Shown piece after piece: positions 20,727-48,461 of a DNA stretch of 64,000 bases. Both the position numbers and the translations under genes were made by a program. Origin of the DNA: Escherichia virus TH43; the sequence record MT446414.1, one strand, 5' to 3'. Under the pieces are notes generated by a model, which was not told the origin of the DNA, ran no database searches, and was given only the letters and a program-made list of their open reading frames with translations. The first letter of the stretch is position 1. Each line of letters begins with the position of its first letter.

Positions 20727-23504
20727 TTACTCGGTTGGCATCTCTACACGAAGATCTACCCAACGGCCCTCTGGAATGTCAACAGGTTCTCCATCAACAA
20801 CCCCTTCTTTTTCATTACTAGCAAAAGAAGGAACCTCACTGTGAACTCTGTGGTAAGTCTTAAGGGTTATATCACCAATCTCATCCACTTCATAATCCAC
20901 CCACAGTAAAGGGAGTCCATTAGAGTTTTGAGGAATAGAGAATCCACCCCCATTACCACCCCAAGAAGGGTCGGAGTTAAAACCTAAGACTCCAGAGATC
21001 TTATAAACACCAACATCTAATCTTTCTGTGATTACGCCTTGTGCTTGATCATTAACTTCAGAGGAGCCATCTGGTTTAAGCTTGACAATAGGGGATGCTA
21101 TTTTAACAAAACCGTTAACATCCACAGTTGTGTTTAAGTCTCTGACCAAGAAGTCTCTCCAGTTAGTAATCAAAGCTGGGTCATTAGTTCTTTGACGATA
21201 CCGAGGAGCTTGGTTGGTGATGGTAGAGAAACCAATCTGAGACCAATTCCCACCACGACCTCCTTCAGAGATGGTCATAATCTCTGCATAGGAGTAGGGT
21301 GCTCCATTACCCCCGGGGAACGGGGAAACATCTTGACTGTAGAATCCAATACCTGTTGGCAAATCTTCACTACCATAAAAAGTCGATTGACCATACTGAT
21401 AGTGCATAGCTCCTAGTTTTTCAGAACCCTCGGCTGGAGTCTTCCCTCCTGTACCACCACTTATTACCGGCAAAGCTATTCGAGAAGAATCGGAGTTATT
21501 GAAATACCCCCAATCTGCATCTGTAATAAAGAAGGTGTGTTCTCCAGAACCGTCCAGAAGTTTTGTGTCTGTTGAACTTTGAACAAGCTTATCCACCTTC
21601 AGATTGACACGAGCAGCAGCTTCAGAGGTCGCTCCTGTACCTCCTTGAGCAATATTCAAAGCTACGGTCCCTTTTGATGCACTGTAACACCCCCAAGATA
21701 CGTCATTGATATAGATGTACGATCCGTAGTCAGGAGAAATAACTTTGGTTTCCCCAACCTCTTCCCTAAATCTCCCCAAACCTAAAGAAATACGGGCATC
21801 ATAAGCAGAGGTAGCTCCTGTTCCACCGGAATCTAAAGAAACAGGCACTGTAGAGCCATCAGAAACTTTGATTACTTGAGCAATGCCAGAGTTATTCATC
21901 TTCCACGCATATTGTGTATTCGGGGAATGGAAACTATTATAACTCTCTGGTCCCGTCTGATCGTTACACTCTACACCTTGGACCAAGGTGGCCCTACGGA
22001 GTGCACCAATATCAGTAACACCTGTACCTCCCTGAGCAACAGAAAGAGGGGTAGTCAATCCACTAAGGGATGTGATATCAGAGTTAGCGCCTGAAGATGC
22101 TGCCCCAACATTAGCTGCTGTTAGAATCACATTCCCGTTAGCATCATCAGGAGCTTTACCGTTAACTGTAACAATATAAGGAACCTGAGACAAAACACGA
22201 CCTTTGTAGTTAGCATCTTTATCAGAGTCAGGGGAGCGAATAGCTTCGCCACCTGTCCAATCAGGAAGTCTTATGTTAATAAAATTAGAAGAATCAGCAT
22301 CAGTAATACCATCAGCCAATTTACCCCAAGAAAAATATTGACGAGCACCAGCTTGCCACTCTGTTTCAGAAACTACAGGCAATTGACCACTGACTAAAGA
22401 GGGTCCAAGGTCTGCTGCGGTTGCTTTCGGAACAAGACGACCGTCCGCAGGAAGAACTCCCGGATATGAAACAGTTTTAGCTGGGTCATAAGGGAACATC
22501 ACCATCTCACCTAGATATAAAGATGGGTTTCCTGTTGGAATGGTAATGTCGATGTTACCTGTTGAATCAGGAGCACGAGAGTTAACAGTTAGGATACGGC
22601 CTTCTGTTTTAACTGGAGTGAGGGTCTTATCCGCTGCAACAGTATAGAATTCATACTTCGTTGAGTCCCACACCAAAACCTTTTCCCCTACCTGTCGGTA
22701 TTGAGCATCTAAATCAGCTTCAGCTTTCGATTGGTATGTTTTAGTTGTTTTATCAAACTTATCGTTAATCTCTTGGCGACTATACTGAGCCACGTTCAAA
22801 ACATTACCAAGACCTACAGTTTCTTTGTTGATCGTAAGAGATACTTCACCGTCAAGTGTAGGGCCTCCGTTAACAGAAATAGAACGAACAGATGGTATCA
22901 AGTTGGCAATATCTTCGAGAGTTGTTTTGTGAACAGTATTATCATCTTTGTCAACATAGAAACCAATGTCCCCCAATTCTGGTGTACCGGTAGGAGCAGT
23001 AGATAGGTCAGTAACAGAACCATCTGCACCTTTCTCACCTTCAGGAATACCAAGTTTGATTTCACCAGTTTGGTTATTGAAAGAACCAGTAGCTTCAGAA
23101 CCCGGAGGAAGGGTAGTCACTGTAACTTTCATAGCCAACAGGATATCAAGTTGCTGATCGACTTCAATCAGTTTTTGGTTAATCAAAGCAATAGAGTTGT
23201 TAGCATTAGCAACAGCTGCGTTAGTCTGTGCAATCAGTTGCATCAGTCGAGCATCTTGATCTTTAAAGTCCTGTTTCAGATCTTCAATATCTTGCTGTAA
23301 TAGAATACCTTGCTTATAAAGTTTCTCCACTTCAGCAATAAGATCATCAACTGTACCAAACTTAGACTCAGCTAAAAGTGCCCAATATTTAGAATCAGCA
23401 GCATACTCAGCTGCTTGTTTATAGGCTCCGATAGAGCCTTCTGTTGCACCAAATTGGCCTACATTATTTACTGTAGTAGGTTCTTGGTTGTTATAAACGA
23501 TCAT
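20727..23504 (-). CDS. tail fibre protein, 925 aa
   Basis: N-terminal coiled coil followed by long Gly/Thr/Ser-rich region; adjacent to the spike gene. Confidence 0.6.
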   Translation of the reverse strand: MIVYNNQEPTTVNNVGQFGATEGSIGAYKQAAEYAADSKYWALLAESKFGTVDDLIAEVEKLYKQGILLQQDIEDLKQDFKDQDARLMQLIAQTNAAVANANNSIALINQKLIEVDQQLDILLAMKVTVTTLPPGSEATGSFNNQTGEIKLGIPEGEKGADGSVTDLSTAPTGTPELGDIGFYVDKDDNTVHKTTLEDIANLIPSVRSISVNGGPTLDGEVSLTINKETVGLGNVLNVAQYSRQEINDKFDKTTKTYQSKAEADLDAQYRQVGEKVLVWDSTKYEFYTVAADKTLTPVKTEGRILTVNSRAPDSTGNIDITIPTGNPSLYLGEMVMFPYDPAKTVSYPGVLPADGRLVPKATAADLGPSLVSGQLPVVSETEWQAGARQYFSWGKLADGITDADSSNFINIRLPDWTGGEAIRSPDSDKDANYKGRVLSQVPYIVTVNGKAPDDANGNVILTAANVGAASSGANSDITSLSGLTTPLSVAQGGTGVTDIGALRRATLVQGVECNDQTGPESYNSFHSPNTQYAWKMNNSGIAQVIKVSDGSTVPVSLDSGGTGATSAYDARISLGLGRFREEVGETKVISPDYGSYIYINDVSWGCYSASKGTVALNIAQGGTGATSEAAARVNLKVDKLVQSSTDTKLLDGSGEHTFFITDADWGYFNNSDSSRIALPVISGGTGGKTPAEGSEKLGAMHYQYGQSTFYGSEDLPTGIGFYSQDVSPFPGGNGAPYSYAEIMTISEGGRGGNWSQIGFSTITNQAPRYRQRTNDPALITNWRDFLVRDLNTTVDVNGFVKIASPIVKLKPDGSSEVNDQAQGVITERLDVGVYKISGVLGFNSDPSWGGNGGGFSIPQNSNGLPLLWVDYEVDEIGDITLKTYHRVHSEVPSFASNEKEGVVDGEPVDIPEGRWVDLRVEMPTE

Positions 23505-23513
23505 ATGTTCTCC

Positions 23514-24260
23514 TTATCTGTATCTACGAATGCCGTACACTTCTCGTGAGCTATTAAGACGGCTAATAGTATTAGGGATTACTAGAGGGGAACCTGAGTA
23601 TTCTGCTTTCTTACTCTGCTCCACAATCTCGTCAAGGATTGCTTTACCAAGTGCTGACCACTTTTGAACTCCATTATCATCTTGAACGAATAAAGAAGCA
23701 TGACGCAGCGTAAAATATAGAAGCAGCTCAGGAGCAATAGTTAGAATAGCACTGGTATCTTCATCAGAGTGGAACTCCGGTGGGTCTGCATAATAACTTA
23801 AAACTACAGCATTCTCAGCAGGGATTTCAGGTGCTCCATCATCAGGATAAACAGGAGTATCTGCATCAATTAGAGGGTAGAACATAAACCGACTACCTAA
23901 ACGAGCAAAAACAACTTCCCCTTGATTCCAATTGGATGGGTTGACTGAGTTATTTCTCTTCAACCAGTCAAGTTCTTCAGGAGAGGTTACTCTGAACATC
24001 ATCCCATTTGAAGCTCTCATAATCCATTGTGCTTCTAAAAAGTCAGGAGGGATAAAAGCAATACCATCCTTGATATCTAAATATACTTCTTTTTCCAGAG
24101 GAGGAATTCGTAAGTTACGATAAATTTCCTTCTCTGCAAAGTTGATGAAATTTGGAATTTGATTAACAAATTCGTCGTCATCCCTATCGGCCCAGAGTGA
24201 CACAGCCTTTTTAAGCCAGCCATAGGTGTTGATAGGATACTGAACTTCAGGCATTGCCAT
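23514..24260 (-). CDS. hypothetical structural protein (possible head-tail adaptor)
   Basis: Position between capsid module and tail fibres; no motif. Confidence 0.4.
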   Translation of the reverse strand: MAMPEVQYPINTYGWLKKAVSLWADRDDDEFVNQIPNFINFAEKEIYRNLRIPPLEKEVYLDIKDGIAFIPPDFLEAQWIMRASNGMMFRVTSPEELDWLKRNNSVNPSNWNQGEVVFARLGSRFMFYPLIDADTPVYPDDGAPEIPAENAVVLSYYADPPEFHSDEDTSAILTIAPELLLYFTLRHASLFVQDDNGVQKWSALGKAILDEIVEQSKKAEYSGSPLVIPNTISRLNSSREVYGIRRYR

Positions 24261-24360
24261 AGTGTGTCCTCCTAATTATGTATAGACAAAGAGAGTACAT
24301 TACATATCTCCTTATAAGGGTCTTAAAATGAGAAAAGGCCACCCGAAGGCAGCCTTAGTT

Positions 24361-25479
24361 TTAAGCACCAGATTTAACGGTGTAGGTTTTGAACACTGTA
24401 GAACCTGGGTCAGTTCTCAGGGTTACTTTAGTATCTTCACTAGTGATAGCACCAGAGAGCGTAATTGTTAAAGCATCACCAGAAATGGTAATACTCAATT
24501 TGTCTGCATCTGTGCCTTCTACATCATATACGATAGTTCCTAGTGGAGCACCTTGAGGAACAGAAGCTATGTTAAAAACTCCTGGTTGGCTTGGGTCTGA
24601 GATTGTCAAAGTATCACCAGCTACTGACCCATCAGACACTGCTGAAACAACTAAACCAGTAAGTTTAGGTATTACGTCTTCTATGGTAGAAGTTGCAGTT
24701 ACTGAAGTCTGGGTTTTATGAGTAGCCTTAACAGTTACATTGTCATTCGCTGTATCTGACAAGGTTAACAAGCCAGAGGTAGCATTAACAGAACCGGCAG
24801 CAGTAGGGGTTACTACAAAATTATAGTCACTAGCAGCTGAGCGTTGAACAGTAAACATATCTGTAAAAGCGACACTGTCTCCACCAGATTTTCCAGTAAT
24901 AGCAGCTTTAGCCGCGATAGTTGGAGGCTGAGGGTTGACAACAACGTTAATCACTTTAGTGACAGAAGGTTTAGTAGAAGATTTAACTGTAAGAGTAGTA
25001 CTACCTGCTGCAACAGCAGTTACACGACCAGCAGTTGTTACCGTAGCCTTAGTCGGATCTGCAATTTCCCAAGTAACACCTTGAGGTGCACCAGCAGGAG
25101 ATACAGAAGCAGTCAGATTGGTAGCATCTGGAACAGTTATGGTAAGAGTATCACCAGTTAGACCACCACCAGTTACAGCAATGGAAGCTGGGTCAGGGAT
25201 TGGAGCTTTAATTTCCGAGATAACGGCAGTACCTGATACATCTTTAAGAGTAGCAGTCACTGTAATATCAGCGGTTTGAGGCGAACCCGGAGCAGTGAAC
25301 AGTCCAGAAACAGAAATGGCCCCACCACCGGCTACTGACCAATCGAAGCCTGTAGTAGATGTGGAGCCATCGCTTAGTTCTGCTTCAGCTGTAAACTGTT
25401 GGGTAGCCCCGGTCAGCAGACTAGCCACTGACGCGGGACTAACAGTTACGCTGTCAACTGTTACGCCCCCGCCTTTCCC
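24361..25479 (-). CDS. Ig-like domain ORF, predicted C-terminal extension of the major capsid protein via -1 frameshift
   Basis: Thr/Ser/Val-rich Ig-like repeats; frame overlaps the capsid gene 3' end by 90 nt; no ATG or Shine-Dalgarno near its 5' end; slippery heptamer sits in the overlap. Confidence 0.55.
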   Translation of the reverse strand, partial: GKGGGVTVDSVTVSPASVASLLTGATQQFTAEAELSDGSTSTTGFDWSVAGGGAISVSGLFTAPGSPQTADITVTATLKDVSGTAVISEIKAPIPDPASIAVTGGGLTGDTLTITVPDATNLTASVSPAGAPQGVTWEIADPTKATVTTAGRVTAVAAGSTTLTVKSSTKPSVTKVINVVVNPQPPTIAAKAAITGKSGGDSVAFTDMFTVQRSAASDYNFVVTPTAAGSVNATSGLLTLSDTANDNVTVKATHKTQTSVTATSTIEDVIPKLTGLVVSAVSDGSVAGDTLTISDPSQPGVFNIASVPQGAPLGTIVYDVEGTDADKLSITISGDALTITLSGAITSEDTKVTLRTDPGSTVFKTYTVKSGA

Positions 25480-26519
25480 GCAGCGGTGAACAGTACACCA
25501 GAAGCATACGGGTTGCGGTGACGCAGACCAACTTCCATTTCGATCATCCACTTCTCGTAAGAACCATCTTTAGCCAGTTCAGTACGCTTCGGAGCACGAA
25601 GGACCATCTGAGTCCAGTCAGAGCTGCGGAAGAAGTAAACTGCATCAGTAGGCATCCAACGGTTAACGATGATTTTATAGCTCTGACCCAGCGGGTCGGT
25701 GATGCTGTTAACTTCGTAGATGAATTGTTTAGTGTTCTCAAAGATACGCTGACGAGAACCAACAGAGTTTTCCTGCAGCTTAGCAAAAATGCTAGCGTGA
25801 GCAGGGTTAATCATGATGATATCAGCTTCAGAACCTGCGGTATACAGCTGAAGAGTCATATCAAAGATATCTGCTTCATCAAAGCCTACGTTAGTGGTAG
25901 GGTTAGATGCGTTCTGTGCAACTTTAACAGTTACTGCACCGGTATCCGGGTCAGCAGGGCCGTTCTTAGTCTTATCAACAACGCTACCAGACAGACCACC
26001 ATGAGCACACAGGAACTGGAAAGCACCAGTCTTACGAGCTGCATGAGTATCATTCAGACCAGCCAGAGCAGGATCAGCTGCTGAGTTAGTCAGATACTGG
26101 TCAGCCAGAACGTCGGTACGAGCCTGACCGGACAGCAAGATTTTCTCGAGATCACGTTTAATCTCTTTACCTTTCTTCTCCAGCTGATACATCAGTTCAC
26201 GACCACGACCGTAGTTAGCGGTGGTGTTAGCAGTATCAGAAACACGAACTACTTTACGCAGGATCTGAGTTACGTTAGATTTGATAACAGTCGGTTGCAT
26301 TTCACCGTCATCAGCGCGAGAGCCTTCAACGTGTGCGTTGTTAGCATCAACACTTGCCAGTGCATCGGTCTGCCAGCTGAAAATAGTCTGGTTGATAGAC
26401 TCTTTACCAGTCATAGACACAAACGGAGTATCTTGCGGAGAGAGGACAGAAATCCAGTTAGCAAAAGAAAGTTTTTTACCGTTCTGGTCGTAAGATACAA
26501 ATAAAGTTGGATTTGCCAT
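25461..26519 (-). CDS. major capsid protein
   Basis: 352-aa protein directly downstream of the acidic scaffold gene; GGAG upstream of ATG; order terminase-portal-scaffold-capsid. Confidence 0.65.
   Translation of the reverse strand: MANPTLFVSYDQNGKKLSFANWISVLSPQDTPFVSMTGKESINQTIFSWQTDALASVDANNAHVEGSRADDGEMQPTVIKSNVTQILRKVVRVSDTANTTANYGRGRELMYQLEKKGKEIKRDLEKILLSGQARTDVLADQYLTNSAADPALAGLNDTHAARKTGAFQFLCAHGGLSGSVVDKTKNGPADPDTGAVTVKVAQNASNPTTNVGFDEADIFDMTLQLYTAGSEADIIMINPAHASIFAKLQENSVGSRQRIFENTKQFIYEVNSITDPLGQSYKIIVNRWMPTDAVYFFRSSDWTQMVLRAPKRTELAKDGSYEKWMIEMEVGLRHRNPYASGVLFTAAGKAGA
25473..25479 (-). other. candidate -1 programmed ribosomal frameshift site G_GGA_AAG
   Basis: X_XXY_YYZ heptamer in the capsid frame 4 codons before its stop; the -1 frame continues GKGGGVTVD into the Ig-like ORF; nested hairpin immediately downstream (25432-25472). 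Confidence 0.55.
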
Positions 26520-26559
26520 GTTATGTTAGCTCCTATACTATTTAAAAATAATTTGTCGA

Positions 26560-27639
26560 TTAATCTACGAGATACTTAAATGCATCTTCGTGACGAATGC
26601 GACCCTCTGAAAATGCCTTGGCAACCTTAGCGTTGTCTGGCGTATTGGAAGTACGAGACTTAGAAGAGTCGGACTTCACAACCTTACGTGGAGAACCCGG
26701 ACGTTTAATCTTAGCCATTACCTGTTGCTTACCTTTATCGAATTGGTATGCTTTGTGCAAAGCTAGGAAAATAGACGGACGATTCTCTTTCAAGACTTCT
26801 TCTTCTGTAGCACCGAGATCAATTGCATATTGCATCAGATTCTGATAAACACTGTCATCCCAATTAGGAATTTCACGTTTCAATACATTAACACATTCGG
26901 TACATTTAGCTTGGAAGGCTTGCTGTTCTTTTGCTGCTGCATCTTGCTTGATCTTAACTTGCGCTTGTTCAAGCTGCTGACGACGAGCAGTGTACTTCTC
27001 TAAAAAGCGTTTGTTTTCAACATAGGCTTGTGGATCTTCAACTGCTAGCTTGTCCCAATCAAAACCGTTATAATCTTCAATTACTCGGTCTGCTTCTAAG
27101 GACGCTAATTCTAATACATCCGCTAAACCACCTACACGCTCTTCAAAAGCTTCAACATGACGCTGAAGAACAGCTTCCCGTTCAGTCATATCGGAGCCAG
27201 TAACATAGCCATTTGATAACTCTTCAATAGTCATCTCACGACCATCAGGAAGGGTGATAACAGTTTCATAATCTACGTCGAAAGCATCACCTTCTTCGTA
27301 TTCACTGTCAGTAGAATCATCGTGATCTACATCACTTGGTTCTTCATCTTCAACAACTTCATCAGAGTCGTCGTCTGAATCACCTTCATCGTCTTCTCCT
27401 TCCTCTTCTGAATCATCCCATCCTTCTTCATCTTCGAACGTGAGTTCATCACCCTTACCGAGAAGGTCGGAATCAAAGTCAAAGTTATCTCCAGTATCTT
27501 CTGGAAACTCACTGTCAATGTCCACTTCTGGTTCTTGTTCAGATTCTAATCGACTTAGGTCTTCTTTAAAAGATCCTTTCAAGTCATCAAGTTGGAGGAA
27601 TGATTTAAAATCGTTTGGGTCTAAAAATTCATTTGCCAT
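26560..27639 (-). CDS. scaffolding protein
   Basis: Extremely Asp/Glu-rich protein with coiled-coil C-terminus, between portal and capsid genes. Confidence 0.5.
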   Translation of the reverse strand: MANEFLDPNDFKSFLQLDDLKGSFKEDLSRLESEQEPEVDIDSEFPEDTGDNFDFDSDLLGKGDELTFEDEEGWDDSEEEGEDDEGDSDDDSDEVVEDEEPSDVDHDDSTDSEYEEGDAFDVDYETVITLPDGREMTIEELSNGYVTGSDMTEREAVLQRHVEAFEERVGGLADVLELASLEADRVIEDYNGFDWDKLAVEDPQAYVENKRFLEKYTARRQQLEQAQVKIKQDAAAKEQQAFQAKCTECVNVLKREIPNWDDSVYQNLMQYAIDLGATEEEVLKENRPSIFLALHKAYQFDKGKQQVMAKIKRPGSPRKVVKSDSSKSRTSNTPDNAKVAKAFSEGRIRHEDAFKYLVD

Positions 27640-27875
27640 TAGGAATTATCTCCTGCACTATTGATAGCAGCTTTTATGACCTCTTTTAAGCTACCAACCA
27701 TTTTATACTTTTGATAACACTCTTCGCGTTTCTTTGACTCATGCACATCAGTTAAAACTATGTCTTTCATGAGGGTTTCTTTTAATGCCTCTAATGCTGC
27801 GTCAAGAATGCCGTTATGATTGAGAGCCGCCAAAGCGGCGGCATGCTCTTTATTGAATTGTTGTCTAGTATTCAT
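27639..27875 (-). CDS. hypothetical protein, 78 aa
   Basis: Small ORF between portal and scaffold, stop/start overlap. Confidence 0.4.
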   Translation of the reverse strand: MNTRQQFNKEHAAALAALNHNGILDAALEALKETLMKDIVLTDVHESKKREECYQKYKMVGSLKEVIKAAINSAGDNS

Positions 27876-27884
27876 TTAGTGTCC

Positions 27885-30128
27885 TTATTTTCTACTACCA
27901 AGCTTTCTATTAGGAATCCTAGAATCTTTGAGAGAACTCTGTTGTTCTTTCTTAGTTTCATTTGCTTCTTTCTTTTGGAGTTCCAAAGTCTTATCTTGAA
28001 TTTTAGCTTGCTGGTCTACCTTCTCAAGATCAACCTGATGATTCATGGTCATCTGAAGTTCTTTCAGTATAGATTCATATTGACGAACCTGTTGCTGAAG
28101 GAGAGAAAGCTTATGCTTAGCTTGTTCAAGAGTAGCTGAGTTATCTTCCTTACGATTTTCAAGAGTCATCTGATCAGCAGCATTCTCTTGCTTGAATTGC
28201 AATTCTTCTTGACGTAAGCTGAACTCGTCCGCAGCTTTCTGCTGTTCAAACGTAGTACGTTCACGCTGGTCGAATGCATCAGCAATCATCTTCTGAGAAG
28301 AAGCCTGTACGTTCTCAACCTGAGCTTTAGTCATCTCGAGCTGGAGGATTTCCATCGGAGAAGGCTGAGGAGGTTGATACTGTTCAAGAGGCATAAGATA
28401 TTTATGAGTGTCTTTAATACCCATCAACTCAAAGATCTGTGCAGTCATATAACGATCTTGCTCCAGAGTAAAGAGAGGTGCAAGCTGAGCATCAGCAGCA
28501 ATCAATTGCTTCAGGCTAATCAGTTTCTGTGCACGTTCTGATTTCTCAGTAGGAGAGATAGCTACAACAACTTGTAAATTATGACGAGCTGGTAATTGTT
28601 TAGGATTTACTTCAACCATACCACGAGGGGTTTGAACCTGTAAAGGAACTTCACCATTTTCTCTGATAAGGTTGTAAATACCACGCATTAATTCAACCAT
28701 ACCATTATGAGCAATGTTACGACAGACCATACGGAGACGGTTCTGTGCAGCATTCATCATTAGACCTACGGTTGCATATGCGTTATCATTCTTAAATACA
28801 TCAGGGTTAATACCCATACCAAGTTTAGTAACACCTGTACGAGTTTCTTTCAACTCTTCAGACATTCCTAACAGACCATCAATACCTTGAGGTAGATTGT
28901 GGTAAGGGAAGAGATCAATCGCATCCTGACGCTCCATTTCAACTACACCACCCGGACGGTTGTCTAGTAAAGAACGACGGTCATAGGCTCCTACAATGGC
29001 TTTATATCGACCATAGTTTGCGTTGTTAACGTTATCAATGTAACCACGGACAAGTGCTGTACGTAGGTCTTGAATATCTTTAGTAATGTCATACACGGAT
29101 TGACCATAGAAGGAACCCGGAATAGGATAAGGACAGAAAGTAACAAACGGAATGCTAGTTACTTCTTCACAAGAGAGAATATGCTCACCTGCTTGGATTA
29201 CTTGATAGAGTTTAGATTCTTTGTTATTATCCAATACACCTGTACGGATGTAATGCTCATAAACCCAAACCATGCAAGCCACATCTTCAGTGTCCACACC
29301 AATGTCTGCATCAATGTCCTGTCTCCAGTCAGTACGTGACCAAGCAACTGTAGACTGAGTGGTGTCCATTGTATCAGTCCAGTCGTTAAACGCTTCGATC
29401 TCGTCTTTAGGGAAGCCCATTGCTAATAAATCATCTTTAGATTTACGTGTGCGATGACAGAAATACTGAGCATCTGCAAAAGAGGTAGCATGTTCATCAA
29501 CAAAGATTTGCTCTGAAGGAACATATTCTACTTTAACACGTTTTACTGTTTGTTTGTAAGTTACTTTAACATCCACTGTTCCATCATCGTTTTCAGTGGT
29601 AAAAATTTCTAAATCTTGAAGTCCGCCTGCTTCCATACCTTGTACGTATGCAGCCAAAGCTTCTGGAGGTACGCCCTCAGCCTCTTCTGTTTGAGTGGAG
29701 GTTTGTTCATCCCAATAGTATTTGATAAAAGAGTTACGTGTAACCAAACATTCCTGAGCCGCTGAGGAAATGATGTTATATCCCGGATTATCACGAAGCA
29801 AAATTTGGTTTACCAGCTTAGTTGCTACATCAGCTGCATCAGAATCTGCTTGGTTGTCCGCAACAAACGTCACCGCTTCATCGCCTGAACAGAATACGTT
29901 AATGATATCTTGGAGAGTTCCGTTAACAGACTCCCATACTGTACGGTCTACCCAACTAGAGCTTCCAGCAGTTACTGGAGCTGGTAAGTTTCCGTAGAAA
30001 TATTCCCATGCTTCACGAGAATAGCCTTTTACAGCGAGGTCTACATAACCTTGTGCATAATTGAATCGACGTTGAAGGTCAACGCGTAATTCATCCAAAA
30101 TATCTTCACTAAATTTCTTCTTAGCCAT
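27885..30128 (-). CDS. portal protein
   Basis: 747-aa protein directly downstream of the terminase large subunit; C-terminal coiled coil; assigned by size and synteny. Confidence 0.6.
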   Translation of the reverse strand: MAKKKFSEDILDELRVDLQRRFNYAQGYVDLAVKGYSREAWEYFYGNLPAPVTAGSSSWVDRTVWESVNGTLQDIINVFCSGDEAVTFVADNQADSDAADVATKLVNQILLRDNPGYNIISSAAQECLVTRNSFIKYYWDEQTSTQTEEAEGVPPEALAAYVQGMEAGGLQDLEIFTTENDDGTVDVKVTYKQTVKRVKVEYVPSEQIFVDEHATSFADAQYFCHRTRKSKDDLLAMGFPKDEIEAFNDWTDTMDTTQSTVAWSRTDWRQDIDADIGVDTEDVACMVWVYEHYIRTGVLDNNKESKLYQVIQAGEHILSCEEVTSIPFVTFCPYPIPGSFYGQSVYDITKDIQDLRTALVRGYIDNVNNANYGRYKAIVGAYDRRSLLDNRPGGVVEMERQDAIDLFPYHNLPQGIDGLLGMSEELKETRTGVTKLGMGINPDVFKNDNAYATVGLMMNAAQNRLRMVCRNIAHNGMVELMRGIYNLIRENGEVPLQVQTPRGMVEVNPKQLPARHNLQVVVAISPTEKSERAQKLISLKQLIAADAQLAPLFTLEQDRYMTAQIFELMGIKDTHKYLMPLEQYQPPQPSPMEILQLEMTKAQVENVQASSQKMIADAFDQRERTTFEQQKAADEFSLRQEELQFKQENAADQMTLENRKEDNSATLEQAKHKLSLLQQQVRQYESILKELQMTMNHQVDLEKVDQQAKIQDKTLELQKKEANETKKEQQSSLKDSRIPNRKLGSRK

Positions 30129-30195
30129 CTAATCTCTCCCTCGGTTGATAGCTTGGAGTAAACTACTAAAGGGAGGACTAGCCTCCCCACTATAT

Positions 30196-31737
30196 TTAGT
30201 AGCTTTGATTCCATCTGTTAATATTTTCTTGATAAAGCGACGAGCTACCATAGCTAGCGTCATGCTTAGACCGACCTCTGTGTGTAACAGAACAAGCTGA
30301 ATATCGCATTGCGTCCATAAGGTCATCATGTTCTTTAATAATCTTACCAACTTTTCGATGGTAACGTGCTTTCTCTTCAAAGAGCTTAGCACATGCGGTA
30401 GTATTAAAGACTTTGAATCGACCTGACATCATACGCTCACGAATATCAGTAATTCCTGGCTCCACAAAGAAGTTCTTCTTACCATCCATTCCGATCTTGT
30501 TATGGAAGGTATCATTTTGTACGTTTACTCCTGCATTTTTATAGAATTGTGCTACAGAAGCACCACTTCCCTTCTCAATGTTATCAGCATCGTGAGGAAG
30601 AATGACTGGAATCCACTGACCACGACCATTAATAGCTGGTGCATGATACACTGGAGTAAAGCCACTTTCTTTATAGCAGTCATAAATGTAGATTGTATCG
30701 GTGTTAGCATCATAAGCTGACCATACAGCTGCCGTCGGGTGATCAATACCAATATCAATGGCACAAACACGTTTCCACGTATCAGGAATTTCAAACGGGT
30801 CACACTTAATTGAATCATCAGATACATCATAAATCAAACCTGAACCCAACAGAGGCATACCTTTAGAGCGCATCTCTAGCTGCCATGCCGGAATACCTTC
30901 TGTCATATCCTTTATGTCTTGGTCAGAGATGTGACCACCTAGGTCCACATGAGCATCCCACCAAGAAGCATTTTGGAAATATAGAGAACCTGTGTTCTCG
31001 TCCCCTTCACCTTTCATAAACTTGTCCACCAGCTCTGTTAATCCGTTCTCTGGTGTAGCTGTAATCGTAACTAAACCTTTAGTAGTAAGTGTACGTGTTA
31101 CGCACTGAGAGAAGATTGCCATACTTTCATAAGGATCTTCTTCGTCCAGCCAAATGTAATCCACTGTAGCACCCATTAATGTGTGTTCACCCTGTTGGGT
31201 AGAACGAAACTCTAACGTACTCAGCCCATCAAATTCGCCTCTAGCATTTTGGTGCTTGATTTGTACGATCTGTAATTTGTTTCCATCTCGTTCTATCGTG
31301 TCAATGACGATAGCGTCACGAGGAATAACACCCGTCCCTAATAAGTTTGTATCCTTTCCGATAGGTGTTCCAAATAATTCCTTTTGCAATACCTTTCTTG
31401 TAGAGTCCCCTGTAATCCCTACTGCCCAAGCCAATATGGGTCGATTAAATCTATATCCTGTCCACCAAGTTGGGTAGCGACCTGTGACATGACAAGCAAA
31501 CTCGTATGCCTCGCTGTAAGATTTACCAACACGGTTAGCTGCACACAGGAATCTAAAGCGATGCTTCAGTCCCGCTGCATAAAAGTCTTTCTGAAACTGG
31601 TATGCTTTAAAAGAAAGAATCCTATTATACTTTCTCCATTGATCTCTATCCTTCAGCATTTCAAGCAGAGCCTTCTTCTCCTCTACCGATAGCTTGTCTC
31701 CAGTTAGTGCTTCATATATTTCTTTATCTAATGACAT
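30196..31737 (-). CDS. terminase large subunit
   Basis: N-terminal ATPase region (CAANRVGKS Walker A-like, WLDEED Walker B-like) and C-terminal nuclease-like region with conserved acidic residues. Confidence 0.75.
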   Translation of the reverse strand: MSLDKEIYEALTGDKLSVEEKKALLEMLKDRDQWRKYNRILSFKAYQFQKDFYAAGLKHRFRFLCAANRVGKSYSEAYEFACHVTGRYPTWWTGYRFNRPILAWAVGITGDSTRKVLQKELFGTPIGKDTNLLGTGVIPRDAIVIDTIERDGNKLQIVQIKHQNARGEFDGLSTLEFRSTQQGEHTLMGATVDYIWLDEEDPYESMAIFSQCVTRTLTTKGLVTITATPENGLTELVDKFMKGEGDENTGSLYFQNASWWDAHVDLGGHISDQDIKDMTEGIPAWQLEMRSKGMPLLGSGLIYDVSDDSIKCDPFEIPDTWKRVCAIDIGIDHPTAAVWSAYDANTDTIYIYDCYKESGFTPVYHAPAINGRGQWIPVILPHDADNIEKGSGASVAQFYKNAGVNVQNDTFHNKIGMDGKKNFFVEPGITDIRERMMSGRFKVFNTTACAKLFEEKARYHRKVGKIIKEHDDLMDAMRYSACSVTHRGRSKHDASYGSSSLYQENINRWNQSY

Positions 31738-31803
31738 GTTTCCTCCAATTAAAACAGAAAAGGGAGAGATCCCTCGCGAAAAGAACCCTCCCCTTTATTC
31801 CTA

Positions 31804-32271
31804 TTAACTCTCGTCCGCTTCCTCCTCCTTTTCAGCGTCCTCAGAGTCCTCTGGAGGTAGCACATCTGCACCTAATGCTCCAGCCAAGAAGTCCTTGATT
31901 TGTGCGTTCAATGAATCTTCATTAATTACATTCTCTTCCTCAATCTTAATCTCAACAGAAGCTGCCTTCGGATATACCAGATCTGCAACTTTACTTGCAG
32001 CCTTGAATCTAAGATCAGGTGGAATATTTGGATCTTCATAAATTTGAATCAACACTTCATCAGGGGACAGATGACTTGAAGCAACTCGGTCCAACATGAG
32101 CTGTGTCAACTTACCTCTACTACCTTTGGGTCGTCCGAACTTATTTCCCTTTTGGAACTTCCCTGTGCTTGGCTCCATACCACGGTTTTCCAATTCATCA
32201 GTTACACCGGGCAATCTTCCTGTAACCTCAGCTACCTGTGCAGGCGTGAGTTCTCCTTTTTCTCCAAACAT
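31804..32271 (-). CDS. putative terminase small subunit
   Basis: Small protein immediately upstream of the large subunit with basic central segment and acidic tail; positional inference. Confidence 0.4.
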   Translation of the reverse strand: MFGEKGELTPAQVAEVTGRLPGVTDELENRGMEPSTGKFQKGNKFGRPKGSRGKLTQLMLDRVASSHLSPDEVLIQIYEDPNIPPDLRFKAASKVADLVYPKAASVEIKIEEENVINEDSLNAQIKDFLAGALGADVLPPEDSEDAEKEEEADES

Positions 32272-34524: not shown

Positions 34525-34552
34525 TTGACATGTTTTTCCTTTAATATATAGT
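34525..34552 (+). promoter_or_regulatory. sigma70-like promoter upstream of the first early gene
   Basis: TTGACA, 16-nt spacer, TATAGT, about 40 nt upstream of ATG 34591. Confidence 0.5.
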
Positions 34553-36694: not shown

Positions 36695-36708
36695 TTGCTC
36701 TTTAAAAA
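36695..36708 (+). promoter_or_regulatory. boxA-like element (copy 0)
   Basis: TTGCTCTTTAAAAA compared with rrn boxA GCTCTTTAACAA; preceded by hairpin GCCTgatAGGC. Confidence 0.45.
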
Positions 36709-37030: not shown

Positions 37031-37058
37031 TTGACACGTCGAATCGTTATGATAAGAT
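37031..37058 (+). promoter_or_regulatory. strong sigma70-like early promoter P1
   Basis: TTGACA (37031-37036), 16-nt spacer, TAAGAT (37053-37058); A-rich tract upstream. Confidence 0.6.
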
Positions 37059-37104
37059 GTGCACATGGTCAGCGATGACATAAAACATCCGGCACTAAGT
37101 GCCC

Positions 37105-37117
37105 CGCTCTTTAATAA
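37105..37117 (+). promoter_or_regulatory. boxA-like antitermination element (copy 1)
   Basis: CGCTCTTTAATAA, one mismatch to rrn boxA core; preceded by hairpin GGCACtaaGTGCC (37091-37103), i.e. rrn-like boxB-then-boxA order. Confidence 0.55.
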
Positions 37118-37192
37118 TTTATCGTCTTGCCCTTTCGCAAAGATTCACGCGAGATAAGGGAAGAGAACAAAAAGAAGACGATAAAAAAAGAG

Positions 37193-37220
37193 TTGACAAG
37201 GTGAAACGTTCTGATAGAAT
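37193..37220 (+). promoter_or_regulatory. strong sigma70-like early promoter P2
   Basis: TTGACA (37193-37198), 16-nt spacer, TAGAAT (37215-37220); A-rich tract upstream. Confidence 0.6.
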
Positions 37221-37243
37221 GTTCACTAAGCAGTAAGAAACAC

Positions 37244-37256
37244 CGCTCTTTAAAAA
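37244..37256 (+). promoter_or_regulatory. boxA-like antitermination element (copy 2)
   Basis: CGCTCTTTAAAAA about 25 nt downstream of the P2 -10. Confidence 0.5.
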
Positions 37257-37360
37257 TATGAATCAGAAAGTTAAGCGCAACCGCTTACAATCTTGTTAAT
37301 CCAATACGTGATTAACTGGTCATTCGAAAGAATAGACGAGAAAAAGATTTAAAAAAGTGG

Positions 37361-37389
37361 TTGACACGCTAAACAGGATGATTCATAAT
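37361..37389 (+). promoter_or_regulatory. strong sigma70-like early promoter P3
   Basis: TTGACA (37361-37366), 17-nt spacer, CATAAT (37384-37389); A-rich tract upstream. Confidence 0.6.
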
Positions 37390-37478: not shown

Positions 37479-37491
37479 CGCTCTTTAACAA
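37479..37491 (+). promoter_or_regulatory. boxA-like antitermination element (copy 3)
   Basis: CGCTCTTTAACAA followed by TTTA matches the rrn boxA consensus as recalled; preceded by hairpin GTGTGagaaagCACAC (37451-37466). Confidence 0.6.
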
Positions 37492-39208: not shown

Positions 39209-39228
39209 CTTACAATAAAGAACATATA

Positions 39229-40514: not shown

Positions 40515-40540
40515 GACGCTCTTCTTGAGCGTCTTTGTGT
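40515..40540 (+). terminator. intrinsic terminator 1 of a cluster
   Basis: GACGCTC ttctt GAGCGTC followed by TTTGTGT. Confidence 0.5.
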
Positions 40541-40542
40541 CT

Positions 40543-40564
40543 GCCGCCTTTGTGCGGCTTTTTG
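40543..40564 (+). terminator. intrinsic terminator 2 of a cluster
   Basis: GCCGC ctttgt GCGGC followed by TTTTTG. Confidence 0.5.
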
Positions 40565-40713
40565 CGTAGCTAGTGATGCCTAAAGGGAAAGCCCTTTGTG
40601 AATCATTGGCATGGTTCAATCCCTATTGGATGGTCATTTGACCGGGCCTTTAACGAGGCCGCTTTTTTAAGAGTCTTTACGAGGATTCTTAAATGAGTGA
40701 GGTCATGTTCACT

Positions 40714-40741
40714 CTTTCAGGTCGCCCCGTCTTCGGATGGG
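40714..40741 (+). terminator. intrinsic terminator 3 (strongest)
   Basis: GCCCC gtcttcggat GGGGC followed by TTTTTTAT. Confidence 0.65.
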
Positions 40742-40801
40742 GCTTTTTTATGCCCGTAAAACAGGAGGTAGTAAGTTCTGATAACGACAGCCCAGCTACT
40801 T

Positions 40802-41695: not shown

Positions 41696-41855
41696 GTTCA
41701 CCACTGGTCACACTGTTCGCCTTGTTGGCGGTACTCAAACAGGTGTTATTCGTCGGAGAACAACGATTGATGGTGTTCTCTGTTATCTTGTTCAGTGGAA
41801 TGGTGAATCCTCTCCTTCCTTCGAACGTCGTACTGATTTGGTGTTAATCAAATGA
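41664..41855 (+). CDS. small SH3/KOW-like protein
   Basis: HTVRLVGGTQTGVIRRRT ... YLVQWNG pattern; start uncertain (ATG 41664 or 41679). Confidence 0.35.
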   Translation: MRKQRMRSRVKFTTGHTVRLVGGTQTGVIRRRTTIDGVLCYLVQWNGESSPSFERRTDLVLIK

Positions 41856-42082
41856 AAATTAATCTCCCATCTTTAGTTGTTACTAAAAAGCTCAGCGATC
41901 TACGTCCGGGTGATGTATTCCGTCTACCAACTAACTCTGAACACCTCTATCTAAAGACAGACACCTGCCTGAATGATATGCATCGTGTGGTTGGTCTTCG
42001 TCAGGGAACACTATTCCAGTTACAGGAACATCATGAAGTTATCCCTGTATTTGATGTTCAAGTGACTAATATTGGTGGTTAA
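41852..42082 (+). CDS. small protein, PGDVF-motif family member 1
   Basis: LSDLRPGDVFRL motif; ATGA overlap with upstream gene. Confidence 0.5.
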   Translation: MKINLPSLVVTKKLSDLRPGDVFRLPTNSEHLYLKTDTCLNDMHRVVGLRQGTLFQLQEHHEVIPVFDVQVTNIGG

Positions 42083-42307
42083 ATGAAGATTGACATTGAT
42101 AGTACGCCAGAGGTTGTAACTCTCGGAGACCTAAATCCGGGTGAAGTCTTCCAGTTTAACTACAATGAAACTCAATACTACATGCGTACTGCGTGTTATG
42201 GTGAAAACAAAAGTTATTTTGTTAACCTTTATACAGGTAAGCGTGATTCTGAGTGTAAATCGACTGTAGTCAGACCTGTACCTAACGCACAACTAACCAA
42301 CAAGTAA
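42083..42307 (+). CDS. small protein, PGDVF-motif family member 2
   Basis: LGDLNPGEVFQF motif; tandem to member 1. Confidence 0.5.
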   Translation: MKIDIDSTPEVVTLGDLNPGEVFQFNYNETQYYMRTACYGENKSYFVNLYTGKRDSECKSTVVRPVPNAQLTNK

Positions 42308-42431
42308 CATCGACTTATAGCCCTTGTGCTTATCAGAGGGCTATGTGAGGATGTTCCTCAATTAACTATAATCTCAATGCCATATGGCTCACCGCTAGGG
42401 CGAGACTTGTCTCAAACATCCGGTGATAGAC
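42308..42431 (+). repeat. conserved structured intergenic element, copy A
   Basis: Hairpin ATAGCCCT-12nt-AGGGCTAT (42317-42344), then GCTAGGG and second hairpin GAGAC..GTCTC, then AACATCCGgtGATAG; near-identical copy at 48221. Confidence 0.6.
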
Positions 42432-42609
42432 TAAAACCTGTTAATTTTCGAATGGCATTCCGATATGTAGGGGTATGTATCGGTTTGGGATAGAGAACAA
42501 TCTAGGGGTAGAAAGTTCTCGACAGTTTGTACAAGCGGAAGCCTTAACGTGTAGGGCTTCCCTTTATATTAACTGGCAATCCTGCCTCCATTAACAAAGA
42601 GAGAACGTT

Positions 42610-44337: not shown

Positions 44338-44760
44338 TTGAAGATAGAGTTAGAATACCCCTTCGTTAATGACTGGCGATTGGGCTACTTAAGAACAAGC
44401 AGAGACGGTAGGAAGCGTGTTGATTTGTATAATACCGACACGGAGAGGACAACCATTTCTTACGCAAGATATTTAATGTCTTGTCACATAGGCAGGTACC
44501 TAACTGAAGACGAGGAGGTTGATCATATTGACAGAAATAAAACTAATGATGACATATCTAATCTTCAGATACTTTCCATAGAAAATCACAGAAAGAAGTC
44601 AACATTAGAAGCAACTACTGGAAGAACAATGATTTCAGTTGTTTGCTCTTATTGTGGAAGATCTTTTGAAAAAGAAAAGCGAAATGTTAAATATGCAAAT
44701 TCTTTTTGTAACAGATCATGTGCAGGTAAGTATAACGGTTTCAAATCTATCGGGGCGTAG
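44338..44760 (+). CDS. HNH homing endonuclease
   Basis: EVDHIDRNKTNDDISNLQILSIENHRKK is a classic HNH core, plus C-terminal CxxC ... C...C; TTG start with GGAGGGG upstream. Confidence 0.65.
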   Translation: MKIELEYPFVNDWRLGYLRTSRDGRKRVDLYNTDTERTTISYARYLMSCHIGRYLTEDEEVDHIDRNKTNDDISNLQILSIENHRKKSTLEATTGRTMISVVCSYCGRSFEKEKRNVKYANSFCNRSCAGKYNGFKSIGA

Positions 44761-44826
44761 TCTAGTGGAACAGGCAGCGAGCTTCTAACTCGCCTTACGA
44801 GGGTTCGAATCCTTCCGTCCCGACCA
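44751..44826 (+). tRNA. tRNA-Arg (anticodon UCU)
   Basis: Manual cloverleaf: acceptor CGGGGCG/CGTCCCG, D-arm GTCT-AGTGGAAC-AGGC, anticodon arm GCGAG-CTTCTAA-CTCGC, T-arm GAGGG-TTCGAAT-CCTTC, discriminator A, encoded CCA; 76 nt. Confidence 0.8.
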
Positions 44827-46325: not shown

Positions 46326-46580
46326 ATGAAAGTTAACATGCCAGCAGGTAAAAATTCAATACCCCTCAGTGCTTTGCGACTTGGGGATTGCTTCATGTAC
46401 CCTAACAGTGAAGATGGTGATTTGTACATCTTACTGTCTACCGAGTTCTCAACTCGCTTGTGCATTAAGGGTGCGGACGAGCACAGACTTGTAGCCTGTC
46501 TTAACACAGGCCGAGCGACAGCGCCTCGTAAAGATGTTGCTGTTATTCCTATTAAAGCTGAAGCAATTATTAAGGAATAA
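46326..46580 (+). CDS. small protein, PGDVF-motif family member 4
   Basis: LSALRLGDCFMY motif; AAGGTGG upstream. Confidence 0.45.
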   Translation: MKVNMPAGKNSIPLSALRLGDCFMYPNSEDGDLYILLSTEFSTRLCIKGADEHRLVACLNTGRATAPRKDVAVIPIKAEAIIKE

Positions 46581-46583
46581 GCA

Positions 46584-46850
46584 ATGACAGTTCTTACTAT
46601 CAATAAGACTCGTGTTGCAGATATCCCTCTGACTGTTCAGGGGATTCTTCCCGGCTCTTTCTTTACCCTTAAAGAAGATAAAGAACAAACCCTTTACATG
46701 AAGGTAAACAAAAGCTCTAACGGTTCTGAATACTCTCGAGCCGTGTCTATGCAGAGTGGGTACGTTCGTAATATGGCACCTAATATGCCAGTTGGTGTTG
46801 TATTTGAATCAGCAACTCTGGATTTAGTGGAGAAGGTTAGTGAAACGTAA
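46584..46850 (+). CDS. small protein, PGDVF-motif family member 5 (divergent)
   Basis: GILPGSFFTL motif; tandem to member 4. Confidence 0.4.
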   Translation: MTVLTINKTRVADIPLTVQGILPGSFFTLKEDKEQTLYMKVNKSSNGSEYSRAVSMQSGYVRNMAPNMPVGVVFESATLDLVEKVSET

Positions 46851-47735: not shown

Positions 47736-47969
47736 ATGTCTAAAGTTAGCGCAATTGATGCCATCCGCCAGCCGTTCCAGTTCCAGTCCAAATCAACCCA
47801 AACCTTCAGCGAACCTCGCCAGATTCGTCTGGGCGGCACAGAGAAATCTGTGTTTGATATTGCGAAAAATAAAAGCGTGACCATCGTCGAAGGTGGTGAG
47901 CTGGTTAATGTTTCCCATCGTATCCGCACTGGTAAAACTGCCAAAGATCGTGCTAAGAAAGGTCTGTAA
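47736..47969 (+). CDS. hypothetical protein, 77 aa
   Basis: ATG with AAGGTAA upstream. Confidence 0.45.
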   Translation: MSKVSAIDAIRQPFQFQSKSTQTFSEPRQIRLGGTEKSVFDIAKNKSVTIVEGGELVNVSHRIRTGKTAKDRAKKGL

Positions 47970-48220
47970 TGCAAATTGCTAATAAAACCCCTCCTGAATC
48001 AATTATCCAAGTAAAGGATATGTCACCGGGAGATGTATTTCGTGCAACGGAATATCCGGGGGATTTCTTTATTCGAATCCCCTCAGCATCTGTTGGTGGT
48101 ATCGCTAAACCGGTAACAGCAGTTCAGCTAAGTACGGGTCATCTCTTCCGTTTAGAGATTGATATGATTGTGATTCCTGTTCCAACAGCAATCCTCCGCT
48201 TCGACGGAGCCACAGAGTAA
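47969..48220 (+). CDS. small protein, PGDVF-motif family member 6
   Basis: VKDMSPGDVFRA motif; followed by repeat copy B, as member 2 is followed by copy A. Confidence 0.5.
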   Translation: MQIANKTPPESIIQVKDMSPGDVFRATEYPGDFFIRIPSASVGGIAKPVTAVQLSTGHLFRLEIDMIVIPVPTAILRFDGATE

Positions 48221-48354
48221 CATCTATAGCCCTTGTGAGTATCAGAGGGCTATGTGAGCTATTCTGGCTCAACTAACCTAAACTTAATTTAATCTTACCC
48301 GTATGGGGCCGATGCTAGGGAGAGGAACAGTCCTCGAACATCCGTCGGATAGAA
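48221..48354 (+). repeat. conserved structured intergenic element, copy B
   Basis: Hairpin ATAGCCCT-12nt-AGGGCTAT (48226-48253) nearly identical to copy A; second hairpin GAGGA..TCCTC covaries with GAGAC..GTCTC of copy A. Confidence 0.6.
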
Positions 48355-48461
48355 TATTTTAAGAGCAGGTTATCCACAGATATTGGGTGATATCTATTTA
48401 ATTGGCCTTAAAGCTTGGCTCTCTTAGGAGAGTCCTTTTTTAAGTTCAAAGAAGAGGTTGT

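Follow-up and report, generated by a model that had tools for sequence, protein, structure and literature searches.

Two intergenic segments of the window (the whole stretch of DNA that was analysed, 64,000 nucleotides), called here copies A and B, are paralogues that belong to a new family of structured RNAs of phiEco32-like phages. Our favoured explanation, proposed tentatively and at a little short of an even chance, is that both copies are the scaffold domains of early non-coding RNAs of the 3'-UTR type, and that the RNA carrying copy B pairs with the nrdD mRNA of the host.

Two copies of the element in the window

The duplication had been proposed from the letters of the sequence, and both copies proved to be real, each being an element of about 130 nt on the + strand; the limits given at that time, 48221-48354 and 42308-42431, were right to within about 4 nt. 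A block of 34 nt, TATAGCCCTTGTGNNTATCAGAGGGCTATGTGAG, has exactly two occurrences in the 64 kb (42316-42349 and 48225-48258), where 100 shuffles led us to expect 0. In pairwise alignment, the similarity of A and B begins at AGTAAC, which contains the stop codon, and ends just past ...AACATCCG..G. It is therefore not confined to a hairpin, since the collinear part spans about 130 nt and all five helices. We built a covariance model (R1) from an alignment (A4) of 13 B-type copies of other phages, with no A copy included, and it detected both cores:

48217-48357, + strand: copy B core, helices P1-P5 (covariance-model match of 139 bits, E 4e-33)
42304-42434, + strand: copy A core, helices P1-P5 (covariance-model match of 68 bits, E 6e-15)

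The same model recovered all the A copies of the relatives, with E values of 1e-10 to 1e-15 and always on the + strand, and it found no third copy in the 64-kb window. The RNA cores of A and B are about 76% identical. We found no mention of the element in the literature searched. A comparison with Rfam release 15, at the gathering threshold and at E up to 10, returned only a tRNA-Arg and terminator look-alikes; the known ribozyme, riboswitch and processing-site families gave no match even at E up to 10, and the best sub-threshold matches near B (STnc100, TarB) cover the terminator region only. A tRNA or tmRNA identity of the element was discarded as well, the tRNA-Arg at 44751-44826 being the sole tRNA detected and also the sole Rfam hit above threshold.

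Core fold and covariation

From 5' to 3', the core runs through P1 and P2, then an A/U-rich linker, P3 and finally the P4-P5 arm, whose 7x7 internal loop is invariant. In copy B, these parts are:

48226-48253, + strand: helix P1 (AUAGCCCU...AGGGCUAU), with a UUCG or CCGG loop in Kuravirus versions
48256-48270, + strand: helix P2 (GAGCU-AUUCU-GGCUC), with compensatory C-G to U-A and G-C changes
48298-48307, + strand: helix P3 (CCC-GUAU-GGG), with variants GCC/GGC, GGC/GCC and CCC/GGG
48309-48348, + strand: helices P4 and P5 with the 7x7 internal loop
48315-48321 and 48336-48342, + strand: the two strands of this loop, CUAGGGA and GAACAUC

P3 is a 3-bp stem around (A/G)UAU, and the P4-loop-P5 arm comprises only about 18 stacked pairs. 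The consensus of the 7x7 loop is CUAGGGN / NAACAUC, which, apart from the covarying position, does not vary in any of the 31 copies. By inspection, the loop fits neither a K-turn nor a loop E or sarcin-ricin motif.

Covariation was measured on 31 copies, 28 of them distinct, and a separate count was made on 26 distinct sequences. Standard pairs occupy 98.3% of the cells in the 31 copies versus 83.9% in column shuffles, and sliding the partner by 1-3 columns as a control lowers pairing to 37-51%. Compensatory changes on both sides affect 16 of the 28 pairs, and none of 500 shuffles attains any of five structure measures. This alignment was fitted to the model and so favours structure; the compensatory changes are visible in plain MAFFT alignments too. 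The nucleotides that close P5 covary in a non-Watson-Crick manner (A:G in 17 cases, C:A in 11, A:A in 1, never C:G). The A:G and C:A states are each found among the A copies, the Kuravirus B copies and the Salmonella-phage B copies, and the switch between them thus arose at least three times. We infer a specific non-canonical pair at this position, for example of the sheared Hoogsteen/sugar-edge type. Altogether, the G-U pairs, the UUCG loop and the scoring of the model on the + strand only indicate that the + strand RNA is the selected molecule.

Distribution of the element

By sequence matches, the window region belongs to the phiEco32-like podophages (Gordonclarkvirinae), the nearest relatives being HC-25922, Bas88, ECBP2 and SU7-type phages (92-95% identity across 6.7 kb). 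Every one of about 100 Escherichia/Shigella phage records carries the element in two places. Copy-number variation among relatives, which the original prediction had proposed to look for, is thus absent from these records, and the presence of both copies throughout argues for an old, fixed duplication rather than a recent mobilisation. The Salmonella phages 7-11, SE131, SeKF_80 and pSal-SNUABM-01 (Grimontviridae) have one B-type copy in a syntenic position, about 70% identical across 213 nt and with different flanking genes. In phage GAP52, no copy was found in the part searched (40000-76631). A divergent A-like copy (56.8 bits, E 2e-13) is present in a 48.7-kb phage-like contig (L026) binned as a Flavobacterium MAG; its P1 and P4 are wholly replaced with compensation, and its internal loop and P3 are unchanged. 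This contig also carries an Srd-like sigma70-decoy gene.

Other candidates did not hold: a 'Raoultella' match was gone at E 1e-3, and pattern matches in IMG/VR (L004, L012 and L014) look like chance occurrences inside unrelated sequence. Regarding the records themselves, 'hypothetical protein' features overlie the B element in many GenBank entries. The ORFs annotated in the element, such as CPT_Paul_095 of phage Paul (L018 9033-9128), are probably spurious gene calls. We also observed that AGRM01000005.1, part of a phage collection, is a 501-kb chromosomal contig of Salmonella houtenae, and that JBOFGJ010000684.1 and CALKAR010000070.1 are, respectively, a Kuravirus fragment in a Peptococcaceae MAG and the 48.7-kb phage-like contig in the Flavobacterium MAG.

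Early transcription of the region

The genes from about 34.5 kb onwards lie on the + strand and are the counterpart of the phiEco32 early region. Strong sigma70 promoters are found there at 34525, 37031, 37193 and 37361. The literature on SU10, phiEco32 (at second hand) and 7-11 places the early promoters at the corresponding position and the next class far downstream, starting only at P68 or CDS68 in these relatives. Past the early promoters, the + strand carries terminators at 39228, 40515-40743, 42537, 42947, 46241 and 48417. Given such early promoters and so distant a next class, the early polymerase must cross these terminators. Lavysh et al. (2022) indeed postulated antitermination in 7-11 and its relatives, whose early transcripts span half a genome, and consider it probable in 7-11, by a strategy that 'remains to be defined'.

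Near the early promoters, the sequence contains four boxA sites that resemble those of rrn operons and lambda nut (CGCTCTTTAA; YGCTCTTTAA):

36696-36705, + strand: boxA, with no mapped promoter directly upstream
37105-37114, + strand: boxA
37244-37253, + strand: boxA
37479-37488, + strand: boxA, reading CCGCUCUUUAACAAUUUAAAC

These four are the sole exact matches in 64 kb, and they are kept on the early strand in phiEco32, KBNP1711, LAMP and Bas94. Strong sigma70 early promoters at 37031-37389 precede three of them by 20-90 nt, and three of the four have a hairpin before them. Judged from the motif, the boxA sites suggest processive antitermination of early transcription with Nus factors, a link to phiEco32 that we did not find in the literature searched. 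As for other transcription signals, the promoter motif of the phage sigma factor gp36, TAATGTATA, is not enriched and has no site at either element, and CTAGGGAGA was dropped as a T7-like promoter, its upstream part not being conserved.

Elsewhere in the early region, an ORF for an HNH-type endonuclease (140 aa, 44338-44760) ends within the start of the tRNA-Arg(UCU) gene at 44751-44826. In relatives, the HNH gene is on the opposite side of the tRNA or absent, which suggests a mobile homing endonuclease.

Sequences downstream of the two cores

We folded the B locus from the stop codon to the terminator with RNAalifold and as single-sequence MFE structures for the window, phiEco32, 7-11 and pSal. 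One architecture is predicted in all four phages: P1 and P2 are followed by a junction that is closed by two further helices, alpha and beta, and holds P3 and P4-P5. Helix alpha (UAACCU/AGGUUA) has predicted pair probabilities of 0.6-1.0 in the four phages, and helix beta is predicted as UCUUAA/UUAAGA in E. coli phages and as UCUUU/AAAGA in 7-11. On the 3' side of the junction, UCCAC(AG) is predicted to be single-stranded; a small hairpin comes next, then a U-rich stretch, and last the terminator. The corresponding features are:

48274-48287, + strand: 5' strands of alpha (UAACCU) and beta (CUUAA), from RNAalifold and MFE
48354-48387, + strand: segment antisense to the nrdD leader, with the 3' strands of beta and alpha and the single-stranded UCCAC
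48370-48378, + strand: perfect DnaA box TTATCCACA (9-mer), the sole exact one in 64 kb
48378-48395, + strand: hairpin AGAUAUU-GGGU-GAUAUCU, then a U/A-rich stretch, in E. coli phages only
48417-48441, + strand: intrinsic terminator GGCUCUCUUAGGAGAGUC followed by CUUUUUU, kept in all B loci

The DnaA box is kept in all B copies, including those of 7-11 and pSal-SNUABM-01. The B RNA probably ends at the terminator, which is annotated as such in the records of 7-11 and SU7. This terminator is followed by the gp90-gp88 / amidoligase operon, and together they form the fixed downstream neighbour of B.

Copy A is followed by other structures:

42460-42483, + strand: hairpin P6 with a GGGG loop (CCGAUAUGUA-GGGG-UAUGUAUCGG), with compensatory variants in phiEco32 and EP335
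42493-42520, + strand: hairpin P7 with the apex CUA-GGGG-UAG, its stem replaced in Kuravirus (GGAGACUUCCUA...UAGGGAGUCUUC)
42537-42570, + strand: terminator-like hairpin with a weak U-tract, its sequence varying among phages

Between 42460 and 42520, the apices of P6 and P7 both read UA-GGGG-UA (GUAGGGGUAC and CUAGGGGUAG) and echo the CUAGGG of the core loop; hairpins with similar G-rich loops are present in the L026 copy (3150-3225). The GGGG loops were rejected as CsrA sites, as they are without the GGA motif. Copy A has no detectable match in E. coli genomes.

Complementarity to the nrdD leader of the host

The segment at 48354-48387 of copy B matches 5423 of 5426 complete E. coli genomes, in one place each and over 29-32 of 31-34 nt. 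This place is in the nrdD-treC spacer, where the match directly precedes the start codon of nrdD and runs on the opposite strand. The + strand RNA of the phage is thus antisense to nrdD, covering its leader from about -47 to -13 and ending beside the GGAG Shine-Dalgarno sequence. The duplex of 34 nt has a predicted energy of -51 kcal/mol, the only duplex energy used here, since RNAduplex gave meaningless long-loop hybrids on long sequences. From the promoter elements readable in the sequence and the positions of the FNR sites of the nrdD promoter, which we take to be -33.5 and -64.5, we infer that the matched part of the spacer is transcribed.

We then compared 56 distinct enterobacterial nrdD leaders from metagenomes (L029-L148). 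The matched flank CCCAAUUU is E. coli-specific and the core CUGUGGAUAACCUGUU is universal; in the leader, the universal core is CTGTGGATAACCTGTT(C/T)T, and the 5' flank matched by the E. coli phages, CCCAATTT, is E. coli-specific. In Enterobacteriaceae, CTGTGGATAACCTGTT(C/T)T sits 13-30 nt upstream of the nrdD Shine-Dalgarno sequence, and a second DnaA box is located about 85-95 nt further upstream (L028 1500-1610 in E. coli, L149 385-505 in Salmonella houtenae). Such conservation would imply an unreported or little-known regulatory site in the nrdD leader itself.

For the Salmonella phages, the leader was taken from the Salmonella houtenae contig. Phage 7-11 is complementary to it over 18 nt with one G.U, and pSal over about 31 nt with 4 mismatches and 1 gap; neither shows an adaptation of the flanks to the Salmonella leader. 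A Salmonella-specific target sequence predicted from 7-11, CCTATTC (TGTGGATAACCTATTC upstream of nrdD), was not found in the metagenomes, and the Salmonella houtenae leader did not bear it out. The unadapted flanks fit an old capture of E. coli-like DNA of which only the DnaA-box core was retained.

Three of the four phage-host differences are wobble-compatible (U.G in E. coli phages, A-to-G in Paul, G.U in 7-11), and the fourth, U.U in E. coli phages, is not G.U-compatible; with a chance expectation of about 1 in 8, this is weak evidence. Across 14 E. coli-phage B sequences, the 34 nt contain one substitution (in Paul), and the cores differ by about 14%. However, the antisense segment is predicted to be largely sequestered in helices alpha and beta and the hairpin, so that its near-invariance could stem from intramolecular structure. 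The linker strand that pairs with the antisense segment resembles the sense strand of the nrdD leader (UAACCU-AA-UCUUAAUAUAU vs UAACCU-GU-UCUUAAAAUAU). In the predicted fold, copy B is thus structurally coupled to a host-derived or host-directed nrdD-antisense segment. No NrdD homologue is encoded in the window.

Another resemblance to the same host locus concerns the core. The invariant core string TC(A/G)AACATCC, at 48336-48345 and 42411-42420 of the window, recurs in the nrdD promoter of E. coli, where it reads TTCAAACATCC and falls between the two FNR sites (L028 1709-1718, - strand); its Salmonella counterpart is CAAACATCC. This match of 10 nt (E about 0.8-0.9) is probably due to chance.

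A model for the function of the element

We propose that non-coding RNAs are made from the 3' ends of early operons, each with one of the elements as its 5' scaffold domain; the B RNA would be about 225 nt long. The conserved core would confer stability or give both RNAs a shared platform for binding or processing, and the variable 3' part would perform a task specific to each. In the case of B, this task would be base-pairing with the nrdD mRNA, starting from the unpaired UCCAC(AG) as a toehold and possibly after a cut by RNase E in the AU-rich AUAGAUAUUUUAAG. Pairing would alter the translation or the stability of the mRNA of the anaerobic ribonucleotide reductase, in a direction that the model leaves unspecified. 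As A has the shared core together with no host match and a weak terminator, it is B that carries the scaffold idea.

Alternatively, the element could be a signal for RNA processing or stability, that is, an RNase III or RNase E site, a barrier protecting RNA ends, or a self-cleaving ribozyme. We regard this as unlikely. The element does lie at operon boundaries and starts within a few nt of the gene end at A(G/A)U(A/G)AC, whatever the upstream gene, and its invariant loop nucleotides between covarying helices recall catalytic cores and the early RNase III sites of T7. However, no ribozyme or processing-site family matched in the Rfam search described above, the P4-loop-P5 arm with its few stacked pairs is short, and a simple barrier needs neither a conserved 7x7 loop nor a covarying non-Watson-Crick pair.

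A cis-acting role is also conceivable, in which an RNA similar to put modifies the RNA polymerase and lets it read through the terminator that follows each copy; we consider it improbable. Each copy is indeed located 60-110 nt upstream of a terminator-like hairpin within the early transcription unit, and polymerase coming from the promoters at 34.5 and 37.0-37.4 kb must pass these terminators. The antitermination strategy of 7-11 was left undefined by its authors, and, as with put, each genome holds two similar copies in which several stem-loops stand side by side and non-canonical pairs are conserved. However, a search of HK022 with model R1, filters off, gave no score better than 6.6 bits (E 0.9); it covered positions 22000-32000, from IS903 to gene O, the expected place of nun-cI-cro. 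The element, at about 130-165 nt, is about twice the size of a put site of about 70 nt, and its copies are arranged in series on one transcription unit instead of behind two promoters. The strong terminators at 39228 and 40515-40743 precede copy A and would go unserved, the rrn-like boxA sites after the early promoters already suggest antitermination by Nus factors, and the nrdD-antisense segment would be left unexplained. A related scenario, in which the shared core is a new fold, unrelated to put, that acts on the host RNA polymerase and to which B adds a host-directed antisense arm, seems to us improbable too. If it were true, the core would supply the antitermination mechanism postulated for 7-11 and its relatives.

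The selected molecule might also be DNA. According to this proposal, which we judge quite improbable, TTATCCACA and its nrdD-like flanks bind DnaA or a regulator of nrdD. The roles that such a site could play, as a roadblock, a component of an origin or a decoy titrating the regulator, with hairpins that are incidental or act in single-stranded DNA, appear just as improbable. The DnaA box is the only exact one in the 64 kb and is kept from Kuravirus to 7-11, the Salmonella phages keep the box core only, and the two DnaA boxes of the host leader are conserved across Enterobacteriaceae, so that a protein probably binds there. On the other hand, compensatory changes, G-U pairs and the strand-specific score point to selection on the fold of the + strand RNA, and copy A has the core and is without the DnaA box. 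In addition, the flanks in the E. coli phages, which extend well past the 9 bp of the box, contain a single substitution, and the phage-host differences are mostly wobble-compatible.

Upstream genes and the unit of conservation

The original prediction read each small gene and the element behind it as a cassette that had been copied or mobilised. In the window, both copies follow a member of a family of small proteins, xGDVF/xGEVF (early proteins of 74-88 aa; PHROGs 6570, 9955, 16423 and 7832), for which no Pfam match was found. Its five members are encoded at:

41852-42082: family member
42083-42307: family member, directly upstream of copy A
46326-46580: family member
46584-46850: family member
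47969-48220: family member, directly upstream of copy B

The paralogy claimed for the proteins of 42083-42307 and 47969-48220 was borne out, as they are distant paralogues (29% identity, E 2e-6). The adjacency of gene and element also stands in this window, but it has no cassette behind it at the DNA level: in the pairwise alignment, nucleotide similarity starts at AGTAAC and never enters the genes. Outside the window, the association is seen again, as the gene before A is of the gp113 type in most relatives and the gene before B belongs to the xGDVF family in SU7, EP335, 7-11 and pSal-SNUABM-01. However, B is found after gp91 in phiEco32, Paul and MN05, after the 154-aa membrane protein gp92 in 172-1, SU10 and IMEP8, and after gp93 in LAMP and Bas94; A follows gp116 in LAMP and Bas94. 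In phiEco32, the conserved GTAAC is retained though the stop codon of gp91 lies 12 nt earlier. With unrelated genes upstream and a constant downstream side, the unit of conservation is the non-coding element, and its association with xGDVF genes is frequent but dispensable.

Joint copying or mobilisation of the small gene with the downstream element is thus very doubtful. The presence of xGDVF genes before A and B in the window, and before the element in several other phages, those of Salmonella among them, is in its favour, as is the fact that five family members among about 45-50 early genes make a double adjacency by chance unlikely. However, the genes have no DNA similarity and their proteins are far more diverged than the RNA cores, other phages keep the element although the gene before it is one of four unrelated ones, neither flanking repeats nor mobility genes were seen around the copies, and both copies are fixed in every relative. 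A recent cassette event is therefore largely refuted, and an ancient joint origin of an xGDVF gene and the element is still conceivable.

Finally, a riboswitch or attenuator with an aptamer core that controls the amidoligase / glutamine amidotransferase / ATP-grasp operon would suit the complex junction fold, the invariant unpaired nucleotides and the position upstream of an intrinsic terminator and a metabolic operon, but it is highly improbable. We found no conserved antiterminator that would pair with the terminator: the one candidate, GGGAGAG with CUCUCU, cannot form in the GGGCGAG variants or in 7-11. In addition, the small genes downstream of copy A are unrelated to that operon, and Rfam gave no match.

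Significance and comparison with known systems

If our favoured model of 3'-UTR-type RNAs is correct, phages without their own reductase would control the anaerobic ribonucleotide reductase during infection in the gut, and the B RNA may be a phage small RNA aimed at the host supply of DNA precursors. To our knowledge, few virulent coliphages have trans-acting regulatory RNAs, and we know of none aimed at host deoxynucleotide synthesis. Whatever its function, the core can be put forward with good support as a candidate RNA motif of a new kind that may bind a protein or the polymerase, because the loop is invariant and a non-Watson-Crick pair covaries across about 100 phages of several lineages. 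It also sits where an as yet unexplained read-through of terminators is needed in this phage group, a question on which the boxA sites bear as well.

The early RNase III sites of T7 are repeated intergenic hairpins with a conserved internal loop in a long early transcript. The element is likewise repeated, intergenic and part of an early transcript, and it has a conserved internal loop, but it comprises five helices and a long-range pairing, and its P4-loop-P5 arm does not reach the usual length of an RNase III substrate. With putL and putR of HK022 it shares the presence of two related early copies upstream of terminators, the adjacent stem-loops and the non-canonical pairs. The put RNAs act by binding the zinc-binding domain of the beta' subunit of RNA polymerase, and they suppress pausing and termination with no need of protein factors. 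However, the put sites have about 70 nt and two stems, there is no similarity in sequence or structure, and copies A and B are not placed behind divergent promoters.

The B RNA also resembles the trans-acting, Hfq-type small RNAs that enterobacteria derive from 3' UTRs, such as CpxQ and SroC, and those small RNAs of phages and prophages that target host mRNAs, such as DicF. As in Hfq-type RNAs, B follows the stop codon directly and closes an operon on the 3' side; a hairpin and a U-rich stretch lead up to its Rho-independent terminator, which has a U-tail, and it carries a conserved complementarity to an mRNA leader beside the ribosome-binding site. It differs from them by its large 5' domain, which is conserved over about 140 nt, folds into a junction and contains the invariant internal loop, by a seed that is predicted to be partly paired to an internal mimic of the target, by a complementarity that is unusually long (31-34 nt), and by being encoded in a virulent phage.
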